Assembly: GCA_035221665.1 (NCBI GenBank)
Contig: CM069154.1
Location: forward strand, 6,262,001-6,326,000
Length of the DNA stretch: 64,000 nucleotides
DNA from: Okamejei kenojei
Lineage: Eukaryota
Direction: 5' to 3'
Below the pieces are notes generated by a model. That model was not told the origin of the DNA and searched no databases. It worked only from the letters and a program-made list of their open reading frames with translations. Made by a program: the position numbers and the translations under genes. The stretch's first letter is position 1. Every line of letters begins with the position of its first letter. Below, piece after piece: positions 591 to 51,882 of this stretch.

Positions 591-946
591 AATTAAACTA
601 AATTAAACTAAACTAAACCAAACTCGGCAGAACTAAACTAAAGTAATCATTGATATTAAAGTGTAACAGTTCCCATTCATTGTTTATGAAGGAGAAGGGA
701 GGGTTCCTTAATGGTTGGATGCAATAGCTCTTGAACCAGTTTCACGATCGTTGGTCAATGTCACCTTACTGTGAGCAGATTAACTGCTGCATTACACACC
801 AAAATAAATTCTACACTTCATTTCCTTTGCTGCACACTTCAAAAAAATCATGAAGGGTGCCATATAAATGCTTGACTTTTGTTCTTTACTGAAGGCCAGT
901 AATCAATAATGAGCCATAACACCCTTCCCTATTCTCTGTCTGGCAG

Positions 947-1035
947 GCTCCCTTACATATTTGCGCCTGGTGTCACTGTGTTTCTCCTGATTCTCATCAT
1001 TGCCTTGTTTTGGTACCGAAAACGTAAAACCAAGG
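947..1035 (+). CDS. Receptor gene A (inhibitory CD300/pIgR-like), transmembrane exon
   Basis: Acceptor ctgtctggcag|G, donor AAGG|gtgag, phase 2 in / phase 1 out; encodes LPYIFAPGVTVFLLILIIALFWYRKRKTK (uncharged TM plus basic stop-transfer). Confidence 0.85.
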
Positions 1036-1827
1036 GTGAGTTTCTGATATCCCTTAAATAATTTCACAGTACATGTCTCAGTTCCTGCAGAATGTCAAGA
1101 GATTTAATTCTGTTCAACAAATGTCCTGCGTTAAAGTAATAAAGTGTAGGAGGAATCATGAACGATCAACAATGCTATCACGTTTGATGCAATCATGGTG
1201 ACTCGGTGACAAAAACTGTTCTTTTAACATCATTGTACAGAAACTTTCTGAGTGTGAAATGGCAGAGATGCGTGAGAACTAAGAGGCTAGTAGAAGTAAG
1301 ATTTACATATATACTCTCATTCTCTCAGCTGTTAGAATATGCTTTGTGTGATTAGCTGTTGTATTTCGAATCAGGTTAAGTCATGTTTATTGTCACATGC
1401 ACTAGCATGGTGAAGTAATTACAATGATGATCACGCTTGCATCCTCACAGGGACATAGACAACGTACAACATACCTGCCGCACACAGAGGGTGGCGGGTA
1501 TATGACAGGAGCTGCCAGAGGAGGTATTTGAGGCAGGGCAGGTCTAGCCTGGACAGGTAATCCAAGATGTGAACGCCCATTACCTTGAAGCTGCCAACTG
1601 TCTCCACCGCCGATGTAAACTTGAAGGTTCACTTAGCTGTTTCTCAGTCAGAGAGCATTAGTGGAAAGTAAAACAATAAACATTTCAGATCCAAGACACA
1701 TCATTACAACTGGGAAAGAGGGAAAAGAGGGGGGAACCTAATTGAAATTAGGTTTCCTCCTCTTTTTTCTACTCCTATCACTTATGAACTTATGAAAACA
1801 TTTTGGAGCAGATAAGGTTAGGGTGAT

Positions 1828-2180
1828 GGACACAAAATGCTGGAGTAACTGAGCGAAACAAGCAGCATCTCTGGAGAGAAGTAATGTGTGATGTTTCAGG
1901 TCGAAACCCTTTTTCAGACTGATGTCAGGCGAGTGGCAGTACAGAGATAAAATATAGTCGGAGACAGTAAGGTTGGTCAGAGAGCAAGGGCTACTTGAAG
2001 TTTGAGAAGTCAATGTTCATACCGCTGGGGTGTAACCTGCCCAAGGAAATATGAGGTGCTGTTTCTCCACTTTGTGCTGGGCCTCATTCTGACAACGGAT
2101 GAGGCCCAGGCCAGAATCAATAGTGTGGAAATTGGAGGATGAGTTAAAGTGTTGAGCAACCGGGAGATCAGGTAGCTTTA
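1828..2180 (-). mobile_element. Penelope-like element 3' fragments (GIY-YIG tail and pLTR with degenerate hammerhead core)
   Basis: Similar to the reverse complement of 51380-51880; includes VAQHFNS...KQHLIF homology. Confidence 0.75.
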
Positions 2181-2817
2181 GGCAGCTTTCGGGTGGGGTG
2201 GGGTAGTGCACAGGGAATATGATCCATTCTGAACATTACGTACATTAATCAGAACACAGGGCAGATTCTTGCTCCGTACGTGCAAATATACTGCAGCACT
2301 TTTGGGGTTCTCCTAAATATAAGGTTGTGGCAATAACACGTAGATGTTTGTGTGTTCGGTGGAACTGCAGATGGTGGTTTACACTGAAGATAAACATAAA
2401 ATGCTCTAGCAATTAGCGAGTCAAGGGCGACATTTTGCCAGCAGCGCAAAAGACAATCGTCAAATATAGTAGTTCCCAGCTTAGCTGGATGATAGAAACA
2501 GATTGAGTATGTGTGTATGTGTGCATATACACACTGAACTTTTTTTTCTCTCCCGTTATGTACCATGTTTACATATTCTGTTGTGCTGCAGCAAGTAAGA
2601 TTGTGATTGTTCTCTCTGGGACATAGGACAATAAAACACTCTTGAGTCTTGAAAAGCAACAGTTGACGTTTCGAGGCGAGACCCTTCTTCAGACTGAGAG
2701 TCAGGGGGAAGGGAAACAAGAGATATAGAAGGTACATAGAACAAATGAATGAAATATATGAATGAATGATGTTTAAACCTGTTCCTGATATGGCTCTATC
2801 GACAACATATTTTCCAG

Positions 2818-2864
2818 AATCCAAGTTCAATACATCACACGGTGAAGACAACAATGAAATCCAG
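2818..2864 (+). CDS. Receptor gene A, cytoplasmic exon 1
   Basis: tttccag|AA...ATCCAG|gtaaaa; 47 nt, phase 1 in / phase 0 out, fitting both neighbours; encodes (E)SKFNTSHGEDNNEIQ. Confidence 0.75.
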
Positions 2865-3279
2865 GTAAAAATGTGACATATAAATTCTCTGAGTGATGAA
2901 AAATATATAATATTGAATTATCTGTCTTTACACAGGCCATTTAGCAACACCTGTCCACTCCAGTTAAGAGAACCAGCACAGAAACAGGCCCTTTGGCCCA
3001 CCGAGTCCACGCCGACCGGTGACCCCTGCACACTCACTATCCTACACACACTAGGGACAATTTGCAATTATACCAAACCAATTAACTTTTAAACCTGTTG
3101 TCGGCACTGGCAGGCAGCAATTCTACCGTTGCTCCACCATGCTGCATTATCTTTGTGTTGCAAACAGCAGCCATGGCTTGTCTGTACACTGAACAGTTTG
3201 GGACCTATTTTGCAATACACATCTGTTGAGGACCTTTCAAATCTATTAGGTTGTAAAATTGGATTTTGTTATATTTTAG

Positions 3280-3549
3280 GAAATGGCAGTGTTGGAAGGG
3301 AACCACATTGATGCAAATCTGCAGCAACTTGGAAACAACAGGGCAGCTTTGGATCACAATGAAGGTGGAATCACGTATGCAGTAGTGAATTGCCAAAGGA
3401 AGTCGAGATCAAGGCACCCTGAGACTCACAATGCTGTTGTCTACGCAGATGTTAATTTTCATCGCAACTGCCCAAAGGGCAATCGGAAACCCCACTCTAC
3501 CGGGGCTCCAGAGAACACTGAAACAATTTATGCCTCTGTTGTTTCTTAG
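3280..3549 (+). CDS. Receptor gene A, terminal exon with ITIM/ITIM/ITSM motifs
   Basis: ttttag|GAA ATG..., phase 0; EMAVLEGNH...ITYAVV...VVYADV...TIYASVVS*; stop at 3547-3549. Confidence 0.9.
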   Translation, partial: EMAVLEGNHIDANLQQLGNNRAALDHNEGGITYAVVNCQRKSRSRHPETHNAVVYADVNFHRNCPKGNRKPHSTGAPENTETIYASVVS

Positions 3550-3869: not shown

Positions 3870-6688
3870 ACATATAACAATTACAGCAAGGAAACAGGCC
3901 CTCTAGGCCCTTCCAGTCTGTGCCGACCATTTATTTTCCCCTAGTCCCATCTACCTGCACTCAGACCATACCCCTCCATTCCCTTCCCGTCCACATACCT
4001 ATCCACTTTACTTTTAAATGTTAAATTCGATCCTGCCTCCACCACTTCTGCTGGAAGCTCATTCCACACAGCCACACTCTCTGAGTAAAGATGTCCCCCC
4101 CCCCCCATGTTACCCCTAAACTTATGTTCCTTAATTCTCATGTCATGCCCTCTTGTTTGAATCTTCCCTACCCTCAATGGAAAAAGCTTATCCACGTAAA
4201 CTCTGTCTATCCCTTTCATCATTTTAAAGACCTCAATCAAGTCCCCCCTTAACCTTCTGTGCTCCAAAGAATAAAGACCTAACTTGTTCAACCTTTCTCT
4301 GTAACTTAGTTGCTGGAACCCAGGCAACATTCTAGTAAATCTCCTCTGTACGCTCTCTATTTTGTTGACATCCTTCCTACAATTAGGCGACCAAAATTGT
4401 ACACCATACTCCAGAATTGGTCTTACCAATGCCTTGTACAATTTTAACATTACTTCCCTACTCCTATATTCAATGCTCTGATTTATAAAGGCCAGCACAC
4501 CAAAAGCTTTCTTTACCACCCTATCTACATGCGATTCCACCCTCAGGGAACTATGCACAGTTATTCCTAGATCCCTCTGTTCCACAGCATTCCTCAATTC
4601 CCTACCATTTACCATGTATGTCCTATTTTGATTTGTCCTGCCAAGATATAGCACTTCACACTTATCAGCATTAAACTCCATCTGCCATCTTTCAGCGCAC
4701 TTTTCCAAATGGCCCAAATCTCTCTGTAGACTTTGAAAATCTACTTCATTATCCACAACACCACCTATCATAGTATCACCTGCATACTTACTTATCCAAT
4801 TTTCCACCCCATCATCCAGATCATTGATGTACATGACAAACAACAGTGGACCCAACACAGATCCCTGAGGCACCCAACTGGTCACCGGCTTCCAACCTGA
4901 CAAACAGCCATCCACCATTACTCTCTGACATCTCCCAATCAGCCACTGTTGAATCCATCTTGCTACTCCGCCATTAACACCCAAAGATTGAACCTTCTTA
5001 ACCAAACTTCCATGGGGAACCTTGTCAAAGGCCTTACTGAAATCCATATAGACAACATCCACTACTTTACCCTCATCAATTTCCCTAGTAACCTCTTCAA
5101 AAAATTCAAGAAGGTTTGTCAAACATGACCTTCCAGGCACAAATCCATGTTGACTATTCCTGATCAGACCCTGTTTATCCAGATGCTTATATATATTATC
5201 TCTAAGTAACCTTTCCATTAATTTGCCCACCACTGACGTCAAACTAACAGGTCTATAATTGCTAGGTTTATTCTTTGAACCCCTTTTAAACAATGGAACA
5301 AGCATGCGCAGTACGCCAATCCTCCGGCACTATTCCCATTTCTAATGACATTTGAAATATTTCTGTCATAGCTCCGGCTATTTCTACACTAACTTCCCTC
5401 AATGTCCTATGGAATATCCTATCAGGACCTGGAGACTTATCCACTTTTATATTTTTCAAAAGTGTCAGTACATCCTCCTCTTTGAATCTCATAGTTTCCA
5501 TAGCTACTCTACTTTTTTCCCTTACCTCACAGAGTTTAATATCCTTCTCCTTGATGAATACTGAAGAAAATAAATTGTTCAATATCTCCCCCATCTCTTT
5601 TGGCTCTGCAGATAGCTGTCCATTCTGGCTCTCTAATGGTCCAATTTTATCCCTCGTTATCCTTTAGCTATTAATATAGCTGTAGAAACCCTTTGGATTT
5701 ACTTTCACCTTTCTTGCCAAAGCAACCTCATATCTTCTTTTAGCCTTTCTAATTTCTTTCTTAAGATTCTTTTTACATCCTTTATACTCCTCTAGCACCT
5801 CATTTACTCCATGCCTCCTATAATTATTGTAGATATCTCTCTTTTTTGGAAACAAGTGTCCAATTTCCCTTGAAAACCATGGCTCTTTCCAATTTTTACT
5901 ATTTCCTTTCAACCGAACAGGGACATAAAGATTCTGTACTCTTACAATGTCCCCTTTAAATGTCCTTCATTTCTCTGCTACATCCTTCCCATAAAACAAA
6001 ATGTCCCAATTCACTCCTTTTAAATCCTTACGCATTCCCTCAAAGTTAGCCTTTCTCCAATCAAAAATCTCCACCCTAGGTCCAGTTCTGACTCTCTCCA
6101 TAATTATATTGAAACTAATGGTATTGTAATCACTGGTCCCGAAGTGCTTACCAACGCATACCTCCGTCACCTGACCTGCCTCATTTCCTAACAAGAGGTC
6201 CAGCACTGCCCCTTCTCTGGTCGATACCTCTATGTATTGTTGCAAAAAACTATCCTGCACACATTTTACAAACTCCAAACCATCCAGCCCATTTACAGAA
6301 TGTGTTTCCCAGTCTATTTTTGGAAAATTGAAATCTCCCACAATCACTACCTTGTGCTTACTACTAATATCTGCTATCTCCCTACATATTTATTCTTTCA
6401 ATTCTCGCTCCCCATTTGGCGGTCTATAATACACCCCTCAAAGTGTTGCTACACCGTTCCCACTTCTCAGTTCCACCCAAATAGCCTCCCTAGACGAGCC
6501 CTCTAATCTATCCTGCTGTAATATATTCTCTGACAAGCAATGCAACACCTCCACCTCTGGTCCCTCCAATTCTATCACACCTGAAGCAACGAAATCCTGG
6601 AATATTTAGTTTCCAATCGCAGCCCTCCAGCATCCATGTTTCACTGATTGCCACAACATCATATTTCCAGGTGTCAATCCAGGCTCTA
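3870..6688 (-). mobile_element. CR1-clade LINE, near full-length ORF2 (endonuclease plus RT), frameshifted and 5'-truncated
   Basis: ORFs 6508-6699, 5967-6347, 5664-5912, 5286-5594 and 3941-5305 give EN motifs (VVAISETW, VGDFNFP) and RT motifs (YRPVSLTS, DFSKAFDKV, PQGSVLGP). Confidence 0.95.
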
Positions 6689-6989: not shown

Positions 6990-8906
6990 ATTCCCCAACC
7001 CTCCCATCATAATTCCTTGCAAGGTTCAGCCTAAGCACACGCCAAAATATTGTGGGTTCAAGTCCAAAAAGAGGCAATGGAACAAACAAGAAAATGGGTT
7101 CAAGTGGATAGTGGGCTAAGGCTGAGAAGCCCAAGATGCCGCAGAAGTATGTTCAATTGGAAATGCTGGTCTTAGCAGCATTGCTACAGGACCTCTTGTC
7201 AACTCTAGAGGCACTCTGTTCGAAATATACAAAGTTCTTGCAGAGCAGCAGAGCGCAGGTTTCCTTGGCTCAATCGTGAAGACGTAGTGAGGCGGGGAAT
7301 GTTTGGCCAAAGCGCCTGTTTCTTTGTTGAATTAATCTATGACTCGAATACAATCTAGCCTGGGATCAATTGGTTCTTAAATATTAAAGGATTCACGGAA
7401 ATAGAAATAGTACTGAATATTGAGATGATAAAGGATAAGGTATGATTTTAATGCATGGTGTAGTTATGAAAGACCTAGTGCGGACTGACATATATGTTAA
7501 TTAATTTGATCACTCTACAATACACATTTATTTTTTTTAACACATTTCCAGTTAATGTACAAACACATCAAAGGCCATCGTGCGATGGAAATAAATATTG
7601 GGTTCTGAGTCAAATGTGTGAGCTGCATCTTGCTGTGGCCAACGAGCTTCCTGTTGATATGAGCAGCTGAATAAACACAAAAAAAAACTTCAGTGGGTCA
7701 AGCAGCATCTCTGAAAGGAAATGGGCAGATGACATTTCAGGTCAAGATCCTACTTCAGACTGGTGTTACATTTCTCAGAATATGACTGCCACAGAAACCC
7801 GCAAACATACAATGTGCACAGGTTCATAGGTTTTTAGTGCAGAATTAGACCTTTCGGCCATTCAAGTCTACACCACAATTCAATCATGGCTGATACATCT
7901 TTCCCTCCCATCCCCATTCTCCTGCCTTCTCCTTATAACAGCTGACACCCACACTGATCACGAATCTGTCAATCTCTGCCTCAGAAATATCTATTGAATT
8001 GGCTTCCACAACCATCTGTTAAAATAAATTCCACAGATTCACCCCCATCTGATGAAAGACATTTGGCCCATATCTCTCTAAATCTATCCTGTCCAGGTTC
8101 CCTCAGGTTCCTATTAAATCTTCCCCCCTCACCTTATGTCCTCTGGTTCTTAAACTATGTCCTCTGATCCTCAAACATTCAGCAGGAACATGTAGAGTAT
8201 GCGAATATTAGCTCAGGGAGAGCACCTTGCCCTGGCAGGTCAGTGGGTTTCAGGTAGAACACAGTGGCACAGCGGTAGAGTTGCTGCCTTACAGCGCCTG
8301 AGACACAGGTACGATGCTGATTTCAGGAACTGTCTGTATGGAGTTTGTATATTCCCCCTGTGTCCACAAGAGTTTTCTCCGGGTGCTCCAATTTCCTCCC
8401 ACACTCCAAAGACATAGAGGTTTGTAGGTTAATTTTCACAGTAAATTGTATACGGGGTGAACACTGGTTGGCGCGGTCTCGGTGGGCCGAAGAGCCTGTT
8501 TCCACGCTGTATCTATAACTTTTTCTTGTCAATTGCCCACACCAGAAGGAGATGGATAACGATCTTGTCCAGAGCACATCTGCCTTGTGTAACTCTGTGG
8601 TTGTGCAACACACGCAACGCTAAAAGGATCTGACTGGGGAGCCCTTCACACCAACTTGATGGGGTTCTTAAAGATAGCAGAGTCAGGGGTTGTGTGGAGA
8701 AGGCAGGAGCGTGGTACTGATTGTGGATGATCAGCCATGACCACATTGAATGGTGGTGCTGGCTCGAAGGGCCGAATTGCCTACTGCACATATTGTCTTT
8801 TGTTTATAACACCCAAGGAAGGATGTTCACAGTCGGTTTGCAAAACCATCATGGAGGAAGTACCATAGACTTAACTCTGCAGTTTGCTTGCCGGTTTGCA
8901 AGCATG
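6990..8906 (+). repeat. Local segmental duplication, copy 1 (paralogue of ~9630-12842)
   Basis: Colinear matches, e.g. 7030 ctaagcacac/9660, 7180 ttgctacaggacctc/10478, 7590 atattgggttctgagtcaaatgtgtga/11714, 8815 ccaaggaaggatgttcacagtcgg/12748. Confidence 0.9.
8262..8515 (+). mobile_element. tRNA-derived V-SINE (HE1-like); other copies at ~2960(-), 12368, 12920, 19150(-), 23222, 37788, 38730(-), 45300
   Basis: A/B-box head (gtggcacagcggtagag...) and conserved central ttctcc...gggtgctcc...tttcctcccacactccaaagac; CR1-like tail gggccgaagagcctgtttcc. Confidence 0.8.
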
Positions 8907-9334
8907 TGTAGAGAAGGATGGGGGTTTAAGAGTTAATGTGTACATGACAGATTGCTTGTTGCACGTGGTGAGCCTGCTTTACTTACTTAGAATTGTTACT
9001 AATAAATGGTTTTGCAGAACTGTAAAAGGTTATGTGACTAAAAAGGGAAGAGGCCCGATACCAAGTAGTACTGCAGAAAAAAACACATCTGTTTTAAACA
9101 ATCAGAACCGGTACAAAAATGTGTTGATTGTGTGATTAGCTGGACCCATGACTGCTCATGTATAAGTATACTGCCTGTGCACAGAATAAATGAGTGGGAC
9201 CGTGAGGGGCAACGATTATGTAACCATACTCATGGATGCTCTCCAACTCCCGCATGCGTAATAAAGAGGCATTGTCACATTCTTAAAGTGATTAATGTGG
9301 TTTGTTGTTTGATAGCACGGATTGAAATTTAACA
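8907..9334 (+). mobile_element. 5' LTR of an endogenous retrovirus or LTR retroelement
   Basis: TGT...ACA termini; start coincides with the end of homology to duplication copy 2; TATAAG at 9161, AATAAA at 9185 and 9260; a PBS follows after 1 nt. Confidence 0.75.
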
Positions 9335-9335
9335 T

Positions 9336-9353
9336 TGGCATAGTCGGCAGGAT
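9336..9353 (+). promoter_or_regulatory. Primer-binding site complementary to the tRNA-Ser 3' end
   Basis: TGGCATAGTCGGCAGGAT matches 17/18 of TGGCGTAGTCGGCAGGAT, the reverse complement of the vertebrate tRNA-Ser end ...ATCCTGCCGACTACGCCA. Confidence 0.85.
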
Positions 9354-9629
9354 CTCGCTGGGACCATCTCCGACGACTGCGTAAGCAGCTGCGGTCTGGC
9401 CGGGACCTCGAGAGGAGTAAAAAGTGTACTATCGGATCCATTGAGTCTGAACTCCCGAACGAGTTCCCGGGAAACCGTGGTCCCTCGTCTGAGGTTGATC
9501 TGGTTCCCTGCTGAGATCCACAAGAGTCAGAGGTAAGAGAAACATCGTTATAATAGTCAAAGGTAAGGTTAATTGAGCATTGAGACTAAGAAGAGTGGGG
9601 TCTGTATAAATTAAAATAATAATTGAACA

Positions 9630-12600
9630 TTCCCATCGTAATTCCTTGGAAATGTCAGCCTAAGCACACCACAACCCATTGTTTCTGGGCCAAAATATTG
9701 TGGGCTCAAGTCCGTAAAGGGGCAATAGATCAAGCAAGAACATGGGTTCAAGTGAATAGTGGTCTAAGGCAGATAAGCCCAAGATGTAAAATGATCCTCA
9801 AGCCTGGGTAAGGGGCCTCTCTGAAACTTGGTCAAGACCGGATTTTACCTGCCTCAGTGACCAGTCGCAAATAAACTGATCTTAAATGAGCCCATCCCTA
9901 GATACGGCCTAGTCAGGGGGAAATGGGGAGGGAGGGGAGTAATTTAGAGTGGAACTGCAGAAAGATTCATAGGTTTTATAGCCTGTTAGAATACTAGAAG
10001 TGAGTCGAGAGTGTTTTATTGCCATACAGTATGTACTTGCAGCAGCACAATTGAGCAATATACATGAATTCCTTTATCTTTTGTATTCACTGAGAATGCA
10101 AGGTGGAGGAAGGGGAGAAAGGCAATGTAGATGTGGTTGAGTAAAAGGCAATGAATGTTTTGTATCTGAGGGCGTCTACCCCAGGACATGTGTAACCAAA
10201 GTTGGCCAATGTGTAATAAAAAATAATTTGTTCTGAAAATAAGCCCCCGAGCCCACGTGAAATGTTCCCATCTACAACGTCCCTCCCCAGTACATGAGTA
10301 CATTACCTACGAGCACTTCAGTGCCAACTGTAGAGTACATCACTGCCTGAACTGCAAATTTCTGGGTGAGATCCCAAACCAAGGAGATTCTACTGTCATG
10401 ACCACAGAAACCCCCCCAAAAAAAGGCAATATCTGTAGCAGAAGTAAGTTCGATTGGAAATGCTGTTCTTAGCAACATTGCTACAGGACCTCTTCTCAAC
10501 TCTAACGGTACTCTGTTCGAAATATACAAAGTTCCTACAGAGCAGTGGGCAGGGATTCGAGTTTCTTGATCACTGGAACCTCTTTTGGGGAAGGCATGAT
10601 CTGTACACAAAGGACGGGTTGCACTTGAACCCGAGGGGGACCAATATCCTGGCAGGGAGATTTGCAAAGGCTACTGGGGAGACTTTAAACTAGAAAGGAT
10701 GGGGGGAGGGACTCGGGTAAAGGGGGCTAGGGGTCAGGGTGTGGGGCAAGAGGCAGAGAAGGGAAGGACCCAAAATGTAGGCGAGAAAGATTTAAAAAGA
10801 TAATAGACAGAGAATAAGGGATGGTGGGTTTCTAAAATGTGTATATTTTAATGCTAGGAGCATTGTAAGTAAGGTGGATGAACTTAGAGCCTGGATTGAC
10901 ACCTGGAAATATGATGTTGCGGCAATCAGTGAAACATGGTTGCAGGAGGGCTGTGATTGGAAACTAAATATTCCAGGATTTCGTTGCTTCAGGTGTGATA
11001 GAATTGGAGGGACCAGAGAGGGAGGTGTTGCATTGCTTGTCAGAGAAGATATTACAGCAGTGCTTTGGCAGGATAGATTAGAGGGCTCGTCTAGGGAGGC
11101 TATTTGGGTGGAACTGATAAGTGGGAACGGTGTAGCAACACTTTTAGGGGTGTACTATAGACCGCCAAATGGGGAGCGAGAATTGGAAGAGCAAATATGT
11201 AAGGAGATAGCAGATATTAGTAGTAAGCACAAGGTAGTGATTGTGGGATATTTCAATTTTCCAATAATAGACTGGGAAACACATTCTGTAAATGGGCTGG
11301 ATGGTTTGGAGTTTGTAAAATGTGTGCAGGATAGTTTTTTGCAGCAGTACATAGAGGTATCGACCAGAGAAGGGGCAGTGCTGGACCTCCTGTTAGGAAA
11401 TGAGGCAGGTCAGGTGACGGAGGTATGCGTTGGTGAGCACTTTAGGACCTGTGTTGTATGACTCAATGGAATCAAGCCTGGGAACAATTGCTTCTTAGAT
11501 ATTAAAGGATCTATGGAAATAGAACTAGTACTGGATATTGACATGATAAAGGATAAGCTATGATTTTAAAGCATGGTGTCGTTATGAAGGACCGAATGGG
11601 GACTGACATATTTGTTCATTAATTTGTTCACCCAACAATACACATTTATTTGTTTTGAACACATTTCCAGTCAATGTACAAACACATCAAAGGCCAATGT
11701 ACGATGGAAAGAAATATTGGGTTCTGAGTCAAATGTGTGATCTGCATCTTGCTGTGGTCAACGTGCTTCCTGTTAATATGAGCAGTTGAGCAAAACACAA
11801 AAAAAACACTTCAGTGGGTCAAACAGCATCTCTGAAAGGAAATGGGCAGATGACATTTCATGTCAGGACCCTACTTCAGACTGGTGTTACTTTTCTCAGA
11901 AAATGACTGCAGCAGAAACCCACAAACAAACAATGTTCATAGGTTCATAAGTTCTAAGTGCAGAATTAGGCCTTTCGGCCCATCAAGCCATTCAATCATG
12001 GCTGATCTATCTTCCCCTCTCAACTCCATTCACCTGCCCTCTCCCCATAACCCCTGACACTCCCACTAATCAGGAATCTGTCAATCTCTGCCTAAAAAAT
12101 ATCCATCGAATTGGCTTCCACAATCGTCTGTTGAAATAAATTCCACAAATTCACCACCCTCTGACTAAAGAAATTTGGCCCATATCTCTCCAAACCTATC
12201 CTGTTCAGGTTCCTATTAAATCTGTCCCCCACCTTAAACCTATGCCCACTGCTTCTCAAACTATGTCCTCTGGTTCTCAAGTATTCAGCAAGAACATGCA
12301 GAGTATAAGAATGTTAGCTCAAGGAGAGCACCTTGCCCTGGCAGGTCAGTGCGTTTCAGGTGGAACACAGTGGCGCAGCGGTAGAGGCGCCGCCTTACAG
12401 CGCCTGAGACCCAGGTTCGATGCTGACCTCGGGTGTTGTCTGTATGGAGTTTGTACGTTCTCCTTGCGTCCACATGGGTTTTCTCGGGGTGCTCCGGTTT
12501 CCTCCCACACTCCAAAGACATTCAGGTTTGTAGGTTAATTTGCAAGTGATCACTGGTAGGCACGAATTCGGTGGGCCGAAGAGCCTGCTTCCACGCTGTA

Positions 12601-12842
12601 CCAATAAAACTTTCTTGCCAATTGCCCACTCCAGAAGTAGATGGATAACAGTTTTGTCCAGAGCACAATTGCCTTGTGTAGCTCTATGGTTGTACAACAC
12701 AACGCAACACAAAAAGGATCTGACTGGGGAGCCCTTCCCACTGCCACCCAAGGAAGGATGTTCACAGTCGGCTTGCAAAACCATCGGGGAGGAAGGACCA
12801 TAGACTTAACTCTGAAGTTTGCTTGCCAGTTTGCAAGCGTGC
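9630..12842 (+). repeat. Local segmental duplication, copy 2 (has extra sequence at 9790-10440 and a CR1 insert)
   Basis: Colinear with 6990-8906. Confidence 0.9.
10547..11450 (+). mobile_element. CR1 fragment: ORF1 C-terminus (SGNH/esterase-like) and ORF2 endonuclease N-terminus
   Basis: FEFLDHWNLFWGRHDLYTKDGLHLNPRGTNILAGRF, then YDVAAISETWLQEG...GVYYRPPN; near-identical to the reverse complement of 6130-6688. Confidence 0.9.
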
Positions 12843-13669: not shown

Positions 13670-14665
13670 ATTGTCTAACCTCCGTCCGGCAGCCAGTCAG
13701 CCTCTCCACCCGGACATTTCCCCGGTGATAAGGAGACTAAACTCTTCTTTCGCCCCATCAGCCGTCGCACACAGCACATAGTCCTCCGACATTTTCGCCA
13801 CCTACAACGGGATCCCACAACAAGCCACATATTTCGATCTCCACCGCTTTCTGCTTTCCGACGAGACCGTTCCCTCCGCAACCCCCTGTTCAACTCGTCC
13901 TTTCCCACCCAAACCACCCCGTCCCCATGTACCTTCCCCTACAACTGCAGGAGATTCAACACCAGACCCTATATATCCCCCATCTACTCCGTCCAAGGGC
14001 CTCAACAGTCTTTTCGGGTGAGGCTGAGGTTCACTTGCATCTCCTCTAACCTCATCCTCTATCTCCGCTGTTCCATGTGTGAACAAGCGGATATAGTAGA
14101 TGGGAGACCAAGCGCGGACTCGGCGACCGTTTCGCTGAACAACTCCGCTCAGTCTGCCTCGGCCTTCGCTACTTCCCGATTGCTAAGCACTTTTATTCCC
14201 CCTCCCATTCCCAAACTGATCTTTCTGTCCTGGACCTCCTCCAGCGTCAGAGTGAGGCCAAAGGCAAATTGTAGGAACAGCGCCTCATATTTCCCGTGGG
14301 CAGCTTACAACCCAGCGGTTTGAATATTGACTTATCTAACTTCAAGTAACCCTTGCTTTACTCCTGCCTCCATCCCGCCCCCAACCGAAGCCTCCAATCA
14401 GTTTCACTGGTTTCCTGATTATATTTTACTGATTGTATGCCTCGGTGTCACCTTCCCTTCAGCTGACAATGATCCATTCTACATTTTCCTTTAACATTGT
14501 CATCTTTGATCACTTGTTTTAACACCTTACCCTTCCATTTCTCTTCTGTCACCCCGAACATGACTGTCAGGCTGAAGGAAGGTCTCGACCAGAAACGTCA
14601 CCCATTCCTTCTCTCGAGAGATGTTGCCTGCTCCTCTGATTTACCCACCATTTTGTGTCTATCTT
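13670..14665 (+). mobile_element. Penelope-like element, 5'-truncated (GIY-YIG region and pLTR)
   Basis: RFTCISSNLILYLRCSMC..., followed by a pLTR containing ctgaaggaaggtctcgaccagaaacgtc; homologous to 50990-51880. Confidence 0.85.
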
Positions 14666-15580: not shown

Positions 15581-15901
15581 AAGCTGTGTCCGCTCCTGTG
15601 CTCAGATATCTGTCACCAGCAAATGCCTCACGTCTCGGAGGCTCAGTGTCAGTGTCGTGTGAGTCTGTCCGTTGATCCCTTCCCATCCAATACACATGGT
15701 TTGAGAAGAACGAGTATTGGGTTTCAACGATCTTGAAAAGCAATCAACTGGATCTGAGTTGTGAAATCCTCAGAGGTGAACACCTTCGATATTACTGCAC
15801 AGCCTCAAATAATCGTGGGACAAAATCCAGTGAAATAGTCAAGGTGAAAGTCTTCAAAGGAGCAGGAACGTGCAGTTATGTGACAGAAATGAACAATGCA
15901 G
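15581..15901 (+). pseudogene. Receptor gene B, first Ig C2-like exon with in-frame stop
   Basis: cccacag|AA...GCAG|gtgagt, 321 nt, phase 1-1; EAVSAPVLRYLSPANASRLGGSVSVSCESVR*SLPIQYTW...YYCTASNNRG; TGA at 15673-15675 where paralogues have GGA (Gly). Confidence 0.9.
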
Positions 15902-16562
15902 GTGAGTGTTCCTCTCATGTCACTGAACCTGCTGTTATTCACCTTGTGGTGATGTTCGTGGATTTATTGTTAGTTGCAGACGGCATCATTTCAGCCACCG
16001 TGAGCTTATGGTGTAAAATGCGAGAGTGTGTTTGGGGGACTGGCAAATAATTGCCTGTTGCTTTCACCTGGGAGGTGTTGAGTTTCGAAAGGAGAGAAAG
16101 GCCTGCACTTATCACAACGGGTTGAGTGCATTCCATCAAATTCCTGCCTTCTGCCTTAAAAATGATTTTCTGGCTGCCGCTTAATGTCTTTGGAACCATC
16201 ATCATTTATTACCAAGGATGTACAATTTCATGATCATGTTTATGATATTTACTCTGTTAATTTGTGTTAAACTCCAGTAATTTCACAAAATTAAAGTGGA
16301 ATCTACTTGGCCGTCACTCCATCAAGTATAACCCTTACTCTTCGCCATTCACACCCACATTGGCTGGGAAGCGCTTTGGAACGACCTGTGCAGATGGTGA
16401 GGGACGGTGTACAGTATCTGACTCTCATCGCAATCTAGGTGGAATAATACAGTTAAGAAAATCATTAGGCGGACTCCCCTGTACTCATTGATGTATACTA
16501 TAATGTATATATTTGTGAAAGGCTAATTTTGCTCTTCAATTTATGAAAGATTTTTCCTTCAG

Positions 16563-16880
16563 TTTCAGGTGCACTGTGGGCAGAGAGCGAAGTACGAGGG
16601 GTTGTGGGAAGAGCAATCACAATCGATTGTCACTTTGCAGCAGTGTACCGCTCACACATGAAATACTGGTGCCCTGGGACAAGTCGCCAGTGTACACATG
16701 TAGTGGAAACAACTGGGAAACATGGACAGAGCGGAAGAGTGTCAATCACAGATAACCCGGCACGAGGAATATTTACTGTGACTGTGGAGGATCTTCATTC
16801 TGGAGATACAGGATGGTACAGTTGTGGAATTACTACACCTGGCGAACCAACATTTAAAGTACATCTCCAAGTATCTGAAG
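16563..16880 (+). CDS. Receptor gene B, Ig V exon (CD300/pIgR/TREM type)
   Basis: ttccttcag|TTTCAGGT...GAAG|gtaggt; VSGALWAESEVRGVVGRAITIDCHF...KYWCPGTSRQC...DTGWYSCG, with the extra C-C' cysteine pair. Confidence 0.9.
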
Positions 16881-24703: not shown

Positions 24704-24752
24704 ATGGATAAAGCAATGTGGATTCTCATTCTTCTCATCTCCTCGCTGCGCG
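24704..24752 (+). CDS. Receptor gene C, leader (signal peptide) exon
   Basis: MDKAMWILILLISSLR, donor G|gtgagt, phase 1; joins VSDAVW at the start of the V exon; alternative ATG at 24716. Confidence 0.85.
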
Positions 24753-26480: not shown

Positions 26481-26656
26481 ACCGACACAACAGGTACAAT
26501 AACAGCACTGCCTGCACTTCAGACCGGAGACATTGGCCGTGAAGCAATATGACACATCATGGAACGATTTAAGTTTTCTTTAATATAATTTTCAAAATGT
26601 ATCTACTCTCATGAAACAGTTCAATTCCTCTCAGTTCTGAAAGTTTCCCCCTTCAG

Positions 26657-33500: not shown

Positions 33501-34358
33501 TCCATAGCTGCTACTTGACACACTTTTGGTACTCCAGCACTTTGTGTTTTTCTTTTGTAAACCCCTGCATCTGGCATTTCTCGCATCCACACATATCTAA
33601 CCATTTCTGCTGTGGAAACAATATTCGAGTCTCGAACTGATTATCAGAAAGTCTAATTCCGGCTTTCACTCACCGGGCAGGGAACAAATGAGAAGCAACG
33701 GAATCCACATTGTTTTCGTAGCAGAGACCAGGTCAGCCGCTCAGTTTTGGTTAGTTGCTCAAATTTTGTTCCTCAGAACTAACAACCGAAAACTACACAT
33801 CCATAAACTAAACCATAGATGCTGTCTCGCCCGCTGAGTTTCTCGAGCATTTTGTATGAAGCTAAAATGAATTTTACATCTCACCTTCTAGGAGTAGTGG
33901 TTATTGCACAGCCGAGGCAGGGTCACAAAAAGAGATGAATGGTGTCGAAAATATAAGAACCATATTATTTTAATCAAATTTCCTCCATGAAACTTACCGA
34001 ATACTGAAAGGCCTGGATAAAGTGAATATGGAGAGGATGTTTCCACCTGTGAGAGATTCTAGGACCAGAGGACATAGCCTCAGAATAAAAGGGCGTACCT
34101 TTAGAAATGATATGAGGAGGAATGTCTTTAGTCAGAGTTTGGTGCAGCTGTGGAATTGATTGCCACAGATGGTTGTGGAGGCCAGGTCAATTTATATTTT
34201 AAAGGCAGAGATTGACAGTTTCTTAATTAGTAAGGGTGCCAGGGGTTATGGGGAGAACACGGGAGAATGGAGTTGAGAGGGAAAGATAGATTGATGGGCC
34301 GAATGGCCTAATACTGCTCCTATAACTTATGATCATTAACTTATGAAGTAAAACTTAC

Positions 34359-34820
34359 TATTGCCGATGTATTGTACCAGAGAACCACAATTCCTTGCTC
34401 TGTTGAAGATTGACACACCCATACTTCACTTGATGTTCGTTCTAGTTTATTTGAGGCTGATTGCCATGTTGCTTGAATGACTGATGATGTTAATTCATAG
34501 TCAGAAATTATTACCATATATATATATATTGAACGGCATGAGTATGAGAAGAGGCACGGAACATTGAAGATAAGTGAGATCTGGTGATGACAGAAATCCA
34601 GGCACATGGATGGACACAGATTTTCTAGAGAGAAGGATCAAACATTAGCTCTTATTTATTCACTAGATCTAATCTAGACTGAATTAGAGAGAGTGTTTTC
34701 ATGCCATATATAGAGAGTGGGAAGAGATCAAGGCCAGATTCACAGCACAATGATGGAATCCCCAAGAATGAGATTTGGTGGTGACAGAAATCCAGACACA
34801 GGAAAGGACACAGGTTCCAT
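34359..34820 (-). pseudogene. Two tandem degenerate C2-exon relics of the receptor family, in inverted orientation
   Basis: Reverse complement 34816-34650 reads EPVSFPVSGFLSPPNL... with a mutated acceptor; 34624-34359 has a ctctag acceptor, ...GFLSSP..., ASNKLERTSSEV... and a gtaagt donor. Confidence 0.75.
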
Positions 34821-35846
34821 GGAGAAAAATCAGACACGCACTGATATATTTTACTCCTGTGCTGAATCTAATCTAAATGAAATATTTAAACAAAAGAGAA
34901 AAATATTCAATATCTTTCAAAAGCACCTGGAAGACGAAGAATCATTGAGTTTGAAGTTTATTTGAATGTAATCCTCACAACTTTCAACAGATGGAGTTAA
35001 TCAACCAATAAATTATTTTAAGCTTGCAGTTAGGTCGGTTTAATGCACTTGAGCTTGATTACAATATCAATTATCACCGATATTTGTACTTAAACCTGGT
35101 TACACATTAATTTTATTTTATTTTCAATAAAAATAAAAGATGTCCCAATGACCCAGTTGCTCATTCTATGCAGCAAAGCCATCAGAAACAATATTCACGG
35201 CTGTTTTCAGACAAATGGTTAAGACCTCGCTGAATCTTTGCTTATTACTGTAGCCTCTGATCTAGGAATCTTCTCAAGACTTTAGACCTTAGAGATACAG
35301 GCCTTTTAGACCAATGAGTATGTGGCGATCAGCTATCTCCTTACAATAGTTCTATCGTACACATTACACGTAAAAATAATGTGATATGCATTAAAAATTC
35401 CTAAGCCAATGTTGCTTTAGTACAATTTTCTAGGTAACCATGACACTAAAGTGAAAGTATTTGGGGATTACAGACATCTGTATAATCTGTATTACAAATA
35501 CCATTTATACTAATAAGCAACAAGGTGTAATATTTCTTCAACCTATGTGATCCGATCAAAAACTTGACTTTCTTTACAGAGAAGAACTCTTTGATTGCTG
35601 CAAGACCCAGGGAAATATAAATGCACTGGCCGCAGATGCCACTGCTGGCTGTAAAGTACACTGCGATACTGTTAACAATGTCAGCAGCATTTGTACAAGC
35701 CACGTGAACCACCACATGAAACTTACAGTGAAGGAGTGAATTTCTGCACAGGGTTTACACTTGCTGAACCTATAATCATTGTTACACTTTACACTTACAA
35801 CCTGTCAGGTCCCATTTTCACGCCCCCTCTCTGCTGCTCCCCCCCC

Positions 35847-50195: not shown

Positions 50196-50544
50196 GGGGT
50201 TACACAAAAAGCTGGAGAAACTCAGCGGGTGCAGCAGCATCTAAGGAGCGAAGGAGATGGGCGACGTTTCGGGTCGAGACCCTTCTTCAGACTGGTCAGG
50301 GATCAGGGAAACGAGAGATATAGACGGTGATGGGGAGAGATAAAGAACAATGAATGAAAGATATGCAAAAAAGTATCGATGATAAAGGGAACAAGCCATT
50401 GTAAGCTGTTTGTGGTGTGAAAATGAGAAGCTAGTGCGACTAGGGTGGGGGAGGGAGATGGAGATAGAGGGAATGCCAGGGCCCGAGGGCTGAGGGAGAG
50501 GTGGGAAGGGAAGGAGACAGCAAGGGTTAACAGAATTGAGAAAG
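50196..50544 (-). mobile_element. Penelope pLTR, inverted, with a 13-bp TSD
   Basis: Near-identical reverse complement of ~51537-51882; gaatagctgcctg at 50183-50195 and 50545-50557. Confidence 0.85.
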
Positions 50545-50592
50545 GAATAGCTGCCTGTTTGCCAGACTTGCACCGAGGGTGACTACAACTCC

Positions 50593-51882
50593 GACATTTT
50601 CGACATTTCCCTACCATTCCTTGACCTCACCATCTCTATTGCAGGTGATACGCTCCTGACCGACATCCACTACAAACCAACTGACTCCCACAGCTACCTG
50701 GACTACTCTTCCTCCCACCCTGCTTCCTGTAAGGACTCCATCCCCTATTCCCAATTCCTCCGTCTACGCCGCATCTGCTCCCAGGATGAGGTGTTCCACA
50801 CCAGGTCATCACAAATGGCCTCATTCTTCAGAGAACGGGGATTCCCCTTCCCCACCATTGATGAGGCTTGCACCAGGGTCTCCTCCATACCCCGCAACAC
50901 TGCCCTCGCTCCCCATTCCCCCACTCGCAAATAGGGCAGAGTCCCCCTGGTCCTCACCTTTCACCCCACCAGCCGGCAAATACAACATATAGTCCTCCGC
51001 CAGTTTCGCCACCTCCAACGTGACCCCTCCACCCGCCACATCTTCCCATTTCCCCCCCTGTCTGCCTTCCGCAAAGACCACTCCCTCCGCAACTCCCTTG
51101 TCAATTCTTCCCTTCCCTCCCGCTCTACCCCTTCCCCGGGCACTTTCCCTTGCAACCGCAAGAAATGCAACACTTGTCCCTTCACCTCCCCCTTCCACTC
51201 TTTTCAGGGACCCAAGCAGTCCTTCCGGTCAGACAGAGGTTCACCTGCACCTCCTCCAACCTCATCTACTGCATCCGCTGCTCCAGATGCCAGATGATCT
51301 ATATCGGTGAGACCAAGCGGAGGCTTGGCGATGCTTCGCCGAACACCTCCGCTCGGTCCACAATAACCAACCCGACCTCCCGGTGGCTCAGCATTTCAAC
51401 TCCCCCTCCCATTCCGCATCCGACCTCTCGGTCCTGGGCCTCCTCCACGGCCAGAGTGAGCAACACCGCAAGCTGGAGGAACAGCACCTCATATTCCGCT
51501 TGGGGAGTCTGCATCCTTTGGGCTTGAACATTGAATTTTCTCAATTCTGTTAACCCTTGCTGTCTCCTCCCCTTCCCACCTCTCCCTCAGCCCTCGGGGC
51601 CTGGCATTCCCTCTATCTCTATCTCCCTCCCCCACCCCAGTTGCACCAGCTTCTCATTTTCACACCACAAATAGCTTACAATGACTTGTTCCCTTTATCG
51701 TCGAAACTTTTTTGCATATCTTTCATTCATTGTTCCTTATCTCTCCACATCACCGTCTATATCTCTCGTTTCCCTGATCCCTGACCAGCCTGAAGAAGGG
51801 TCTCGACCCGAAACGTCGCCTATCTCCTTCGCTCCTTAGATGCTGCTGCACCCGCTGAGTTTCTCCAGCTTTTTGTGTACCC
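50593..51882 (+). mobile_element. Penelope-like element, 5'-truncated: RT C-terminus, GIY-YIG endonuclease and pLTR, with a 14-bp TSD
   Basis: FLDLTISI...YKPTDSHSYLDYSSSHP..CKDSIPYSQFLRLRRICS; FTCTSSNLIYCIRCSRCQMIYIGETKRRLGD; gtgactacaactcc at 50579-50592 and 51883-51896. Confidence 0.9.

Follow-up and report, generated by a model that had tools for sequence, protein, structure and literature searches.

A truncated 5' end of a probable endogenous retrovirus in an immunoglobulin-receptor cluster of Okamejei kenojei

What is one to make of a segment that looks like the 5' end of a retrovirus and then stops abruptly against host DNA? Such a segment lies in a stretch of 64,000 nucleotides of the Okamejei kenojei genome (assembly GCA_035221665.1, contig CM069154.1, positions 6,262,001 to 6,326,000), which we call the window. 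An earlier note on this DNA had read it as the long terminal repeat (LTR), primer-binding site (PBS) and splice donor of a young endogenous retrovirus (ERV) whose body had been removed by a rearrangement. With a probability of roughly 0.7, we regard it as the 5' LTR, PBS and leader of an ERV belonging to a dispersed family, most likely one related to clade III or to snakehead retrovirus, which integrated, was truncated and has since been carried along as a passenger.

The LTR-like segment, its leader and the host duplication

The features assigned to the element are the following.

8907..9334, plus strand: 5' LTR, 428 bp, TGT..ACA (TG..CA); ends read from the sequence, with the 5' boundary of the family seen in contigs
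9161..9166, plus strand: TATA-like box (TATAA; putative end of U3), presumed to act as such
9260..9265, plus strand: likely polyadenylation signal (AATAAA), 75 nt ahead of the LTR end
9297..9313, plus strand: GT-rich U5 motif resembling one in CmiERV scaffold 2, picked after both sequences had been viewed
9336..9353, plus strand: PBS for tRNA-Ser, 17 of 18 positions, after a 1-nt spacer behind the LTR; single mismatch at 9340
9354..9630, plus strand: ATG-free leader, shared by the family to about 9519 and low-copy beyond
9464..9473, no strand assigned: 10-bp palindrome in the leader, its core retained in other copies
9530..9538, plus strand: splice donor 1 (GT at 9533), ranking 7th of 3531 plus-strand GT sites by matrix score
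9560..9568, plus strand: splice donor 2 (GT at 9563), ranking 4th of the same 3531 sites

Much of this had been recognised before: the 428-bp segment with its TATA-like signal is present, as is the PBS one nucleotide behind it. The latter matches the complement of the human tRNA-Ser(UGA) 3' end as printed in PMC3299991, and no other site in the window does so even when three mismatches are allowed; 0.02 matches are expected by chance (2 in 100 shuffles). The terminal inverted repeat of the LTR-like segment comes to only 3 bp. AATAAA hexamers do occur, as had been claimed, at 9001, 9185 and 9260, but the second of these is not family-wide: at position 9190 most of the contig depth carries another letter in all four of the sequencing runs described below, which makes this hexamer a private change of the present copy. 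The one at 9260 is more likely to serve as the poly(A) signal.

The leader was also rightly called CpG-rich, with 14 CpGs in the 197 nt of 9336-9532 and an observed/expected ratio of 0.88 (versus 0.51 in the whole window), a richness equalled by 35 of 1276 intervals of 200 nt. No ATG occurs for 298 nt past the PBS; among intervals of 277 nt, 98 of 6373 are ATG-free. Donors were ranked with a splice-site matrix, and by this measure the strong donor previously reported at 9533 is accompanied by the one at 9563, which had been missed, both scoring level with the real exon donors of the window. The palindrome at 9464-9473 is a candidate dimerisation site, and the leader as a whole folded no better than its shuffles (z -0.63). 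We tentatively assign 9541-9630 to the element as well.

That neither gag nor a second LTR is visible proved correct. No second LTR lies within the 64-kb window, which, as this copy is truncated, says nothing about the family. Gag, protease, RNase H, integrase and env families were absent from the 150 scanned open frames (out of 159 of at least 80 aa), whose matches fell only on Ig and LINE-type domains and on two minor ones. Reading 9336-10549 in the three plus-strand frames with stops as X returned no protein family, the leader frame 9333-9533 had no match to longer proteins at E <= 1, and neither Rfam nor ARAGORN gave a match. The antisense leader frame, searched against 1.84 billion representatives, gave one match, to a tandem-repeat protein without pairwise similarity, which we rejected.

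On either side of the element are copies of one host segment.

7002..8906, no strand assigned: host segment copy 1, with a SINE-like insert at 8652-8807 (self-comparison)
9631..12841, no strand assigned: host segment copy 2, ending at the empty insertion site 12841/12842 (self-comparison)
9620..9645, no strand assigned: truncation junction, the leader joined to copy 2 at 9630/9631, bridged by contigs
10546..11456, plus strand: LINE fragment (endonuclease) inside copy 2, separate from the LTR element

The two copies differ by 7-12% substitutions depending on the block (K2P 0.135 in the largest block, of 1275 sites). Copy 1 can be aligned to copy 2 as far as 8906, and copy 2 itself begins at 9631, the element occupying exactly 8907-9630; the earlier note had thus placed the start of the element correctly, but had copy 2 begin at 9625. 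Because copy 1 matches up to 8906 and copy 2 runs on at 12842 without any element, copy 2 can be seen as the empty site. The sequence upstream of copy 1 shares imperfect microhomology with the junction at 9620-9645. One could also suspect that 9631-10545 is a decayed gag, a reading that was ruled out: it has no family matches, and other paralogues start at 9631 behind copy-1-like sequence, so that everything from 9631 onward is host DNA.

Several other repeats were observed nearby. The LINE fragment in copy 2 is presumably of the CR1 type. Copy 1 and the element are flanked by two LINE fragments (6131-6688 and 10885-11453) in opposite orientations that differ by 4%, and the family of these fragments is younger than the LTR element. 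A 108-bp block (7141-7248 and 10438-10545) diverges by 9%, compared with 12% between the host copies, and has an open hydrophobic plus-strand frame in both copies with no Pfam match; it could be an exon or a product of chance. Further away, at 50198-51882, inverted repeats of 346 bp (96% identical) surround a 993-bp insert resembling 13747-14368, an element that we take to be possibly Penelope-like.

Copies in public contigs and the age of the element

The proposal that other copies with the same boundary should exist could be followed up in public data. Contigs from four of 24 listed public runs were aligned to 8800-10440 at 82% likeness; these runs (X1, X4, X6 and X9) represent two samples of organism A, one of organism B and one of organism C. 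Of the listed runs with a share below 0.2, X9 was included and 12 others were left out, and the details that follow come from 24 rows of loose contig ends (with 433 further rows) and 32 contig records (with 891 further records). Contigs that break off before 8907 numbered 5, 8, 4 and 5 in X1, X4, X6 and X9, respectively, and their flanks agreed at only 0.47-0.55. Such unlike flanks in all four runs imply both that the 5' boundary is fixed and that the copies are dispersed, so a family starting at 8907 does exist. At the other end, 11, 10, 7 and 8 contigs (same order) diverge behind 9519, and since most of them have a like donor, the donor appears to be a family trait. Summed contig depth, which is not a copy number, is high over 8910-9514 and lower thereafter; a safer lower bound is given by the distinct contigs covering one position, of which there are up to 13. 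We describe the family as dispersed and of low to moderate copy number. We found no description of it in the literature searched, subscription papers being outside our reach.

Several of the listed contigs match only from about 9323, indicating that the PBS and leader also occur with LTRs of other types. The PBS-leader part (9323-9519) was also observed to be at least as deep as the LTR in the public contigs and to occur with other upstream sequence, which weakly suggests that one leader is combined with several kinds of LTR and that solo LTRs are few.

The junction at 9630/9631 was bridged in the second sample of organism A (a 726-nt contig with 11 differences), in organism B (313 nt, 14 differences) and in organism C (161 nt, 9 differences and 2 gaps), which bears out the earlier suggestion that the element was cut off at a rearrangement junction. 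This set, with 1.5-5.6% difference, comprises X4, X6 and X9, as X1, a possible source sample, was not counted; the junction was seen in three studies (P2, P3 and P5) besides the best-matching sample. For B and C, the bridging contigs may represent close paralogues instead of orthologues. The left junction at 8906/8907 was bridged by none of the 32 listed records (891 further records exist).

The element had been called young, a view that the data do not support, since the family contigs among the listed records differ by 7-15% from the copy in the window and the truncation junction is bridged in all three organism labels. Assumed substitution rates are 0.5e-9 per site per year for sharks, from PMC10699275, and 2.2e-10 (PMC4422223). 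At such shark rates, the 4.5-5.8% difference would correspond to roughly 45-130 million years, and a faster rate in this host would shorten that time. Counting against an old age, the leader retains CpGs, which methylation would be expected to erode in an old insert. In organism B the element differs by 4.5%, and its flanks by 4.9% and 2.1%, so the element shows no extra conservation.

Retrovirus or Ty3/Gypsy element

Since no pol is linked to the element, its class can only be inferred. TG..CA ends do not separate retroviruses from Gypsy elements, and the PBS does not decide the matter either, because Ty3/Gypsy elements carry the same one. Those features of membership that were found are an LTR with TG..CA ends at unrelated sites, a tRNA PBS and a long leader with a donor. 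A long leader with a major splice donor after the PBS is typical of retroviruses, albeit not exclusive to them. It is the long leader with donors, together with a likeness to CmiERV, that leads us to consider the element probably an endogenous retrovirus and, given that it is one, somewhat more probably than otherwise a clade III or snakehead-related one. One survey assigns 2843 of 4861 chondrichthyan ERV RT loci to clade III (PMC11089739).

The closest known system is CmiERV scaffold 2, of elephant-shark lineage I, which is related to snakehead retrovirus as defined by Pol plus Env (PMC4422223). It has the same tRNA-Ser PBS, the sole occurrence among the three sequences of its set, and the same TGT..TAACA LTR ends. 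Its poly(A) signal precedes the LTR end by 74 nt (counted by eye, versus 75 in our element), its U5 contains a similar GT-rich motif, and its leader is long and has GTAAG donors. It differs in an LTR about twice as long, a spacer of 3 nt rather than 1, the lack of a match to the palindrome and a complete gag-pol-env, the body that is missing here. The likeness was judged by eye and from two shared motifs, which map to 9297-9313 and 9587-9627; because both were chosen after the two sequences had been viewed, shuffle counts overstate them. The class III XtERV-S of Xenopus tropicalis has the same PBS after an LTR ending in ..ACA, together with a 158-bp leader and a predicted donor within the LTR (PMC8278194); our element, in comparison, has a leader of at least 277 nt and donors after the PBS. 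HERV-S is named as a tRNA-Ser user in PMC5210030, and no PBS passage was found in a paper on lokiretroviruses (PMC7947760).

The alternative that survives best keeps the same history but makes the element a retrotransposon of the Ty3/Gypsy (or BEL) kind whose leader is unusually long. A control set bears on it, obtained by an exact scan of metagenome contigs for the LTR end plus PBS. Four of the 24 loci found (L005, L016, L017 and L019) looked prokaryotic and were dropped. The remaining 20 resemble LTR retrotransposons, a second LTR being visible in four of them and two being of Ty3/Gypsy type by Pfam (gag-protease-RT-RNase H-integrase), and to that extent they favour this reading. The Ty3/Gypsy loci (L003, L014 and others like them) have the identical LTR end, one-base spacer and PBS geometry, with no similarity beyond the PBS. 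The controls differ from our element, however, in just those respects that suggest a retrovirus. An ATG follows the PBS by 4-24 nt in 18 of the 20 and by 302 and 323 nt in the other two, and a like donor within 400 nt was found in none; a Gag that begins no more than about 25 nt past the PBS, a trait that holds for this control set only, is not seen in our element. The controls are not vertebrate Gypsy lineages. Their 57 frames gave no tblastn match in the window, and the U5 motif occurred in none of the 26 loci fetched.

Springer belongs to the Gypsy group. It is an insect LTR transposon with a leader donor, located 43 nt past the LTR, and drives hybrid splicing in Drosophila cells (PMC13097621). 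The argument made earlier, that a leader donor favours a retrovirus over Gypsy, therefore stands against the 20 controls but not as a general rule. Similarly, PMC13524379 describes tRNA-Ser as often used by insect errantiviruses, the Env-bearing relatives of Gypsy, yet reports that these were not found in vertebrate genomes. On balance we consider a Ty3/Gypsy or BEL origin unlikely.

The scans yielded some further observations. None of the 24 metagenome loci is related to the element beyond the PBS, and a scan of viral contigs with the PBS gave two matches, both rejected as chance occurrences within unrelated coding DNA. A scan of prokaryote genomes for PBS plus palindrome with a gap of 80-110 gave no match; the spacing in the window itself, 112, falls outside that range. 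L003, L013 and L014 (from the PBS on) are Ty3/Gypsy copies of about 3.2-3.4 kb with LTRs of 165-171 bp and 96-99% identity, and represent recently active elements with internal deletions, from a host unrelated to ours.

The receptor cluster and the fate of the remnant

The setting of the element, an addition to the earlier note, is a cluster of Ig-superfamily receptor genes, whose V-set exons have pIgR and CD300 as their best solved relatives. The relevant exons are these.

946..3549, plus strand: 3' end of the upstream receptor gene, made up of a transmembrane exon and of tail exons that contain three tyrosine motifs
15581..15901, plus strand: first Ig exon downstream of the element, C2-like and interrupted by an in-frame stop
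16562..16880, plus strand: V-set exon of pIgR/CD300-like type, with no signal-peptide exon found ahead of it
24704..24752, plus strand: signal-peptide exon belonging to the next paralogue, whose V exon is at 26656; served as a control

The tyrosine motifs of the upstream gene are, we assume, inhibitory (ITIM-like), and its exons have no paralogues elsewhere in the window. Between 15581 and 29066, C2-like exons lie at 15581, 17960 and 28731, so placed that the V exons at 16562 and 26656 are each followed by one; no transmembrane exon was identified there for either V block. A local inversion in the cluster is suggested by remains of one signal exon and one C2 exon that lie inverted on the minus strand at 33586-34826.

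The element lies in sense orientation within this pIgR/CD300-like cluster, upstream of Ig exons without a recognisable first exon, which raises the possibility that it was exapted, i.e. that the LTR and donor were kept as promoter and first exon for the downstream exons and amplified together with them. Besides its orientation and its two strong donors, what speaks for this is that no homologue of the signal exon at 24704 was found in the C2-V-C2 block downstream, that the junction is retained in three organism labels, and that in organism C the junction-side contigs have depths of 179 and 200, compared with 22-46 in five other listed records (a 4- to 9-fold excess). There is also a precedent in Springer, which lies with its 5' LTR and leader donor in sense within a gene region and still drives such splicing without its body (PMC13097621). 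In that case, however, splicing was demonstrated by RNA, whereas our element is known from DNA and the next Ig acceptor is 6 kb away, in front of an exon interrupted by an in-frame stop. Moreover, all six ATGs between 9170 and the donor close ahead of the donor, so that a spliced product would have neither a start nor a signal peptide, and conservation of the element does not exceed that of its flanks. As for depth, which again is no copy number, the record of organism C that covers only host sequence (10253-10440) is also deep (138), as plain co-amplification predicts. A body-less LTR and donor serving as promoter and first exon of a receptor block in cartilaginous fish, kept across species and amplified in one, thus strikes us as improbable. 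Finally, that the LTR-like signals arose by chance, or that the truncation is an assembly chimera, is very hard to believe and already largely refuted: the 3-bp inverted repeat and the unbridged left junction among the listed records would allow it, but the chance expectation for the PBS, the 5' boundary common to all four runs and the right junction bridged in P2, P3 and P5 argue against it.

We therefore return to a truncated ERV as the preferred reading, for which the following history may be proposed. A provirus would first have entered one unit of the tandem Ig-receptor cluster, integrating in sense orientation at 8906/8907; the boundary, the empty paralogous site and the family are observed, and integration is what they suggest. 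A non-homologous join would then have fused leader position 9630 with position 9631 inside a neighbouring host unit, so that gag, pol and env were lost along with the 3' LTR and the second target-site copy; the junction itself is observed, and it may have formed either by a deletion from the leader through one unit into the next or by an unequal exchange that duplicated the host segment. Truncation would have preceded the split of organisms A, B and C, as their shared junction indicates, and the remnant would since have been a presumably neutral passenger of the cluster. Whether the duplication or the insertion came first, either order fits, since the host copies (about 12%) and the family copies (7-15%) are similarly diverged. 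The remnant cannot replicate, and its remaining functions would be limited to those of a promoter, a poly(A) site and splice donors.

Such a relic is ordinary unless it drives neighbouring receptor genes. To our knowledge, LTR-driven immune-receptor genes have been described mainly in mammals, and the finding would therefore matter more if transcripts from this LTR do enter the Ig exons. As it stands, it adds another old ERV family, probably of clade III, in a group where such elements are common, and provides a dated marker in a fast-changing immune cluster, with a filled site, an empty paralogous site and a junction present in three organism labels.
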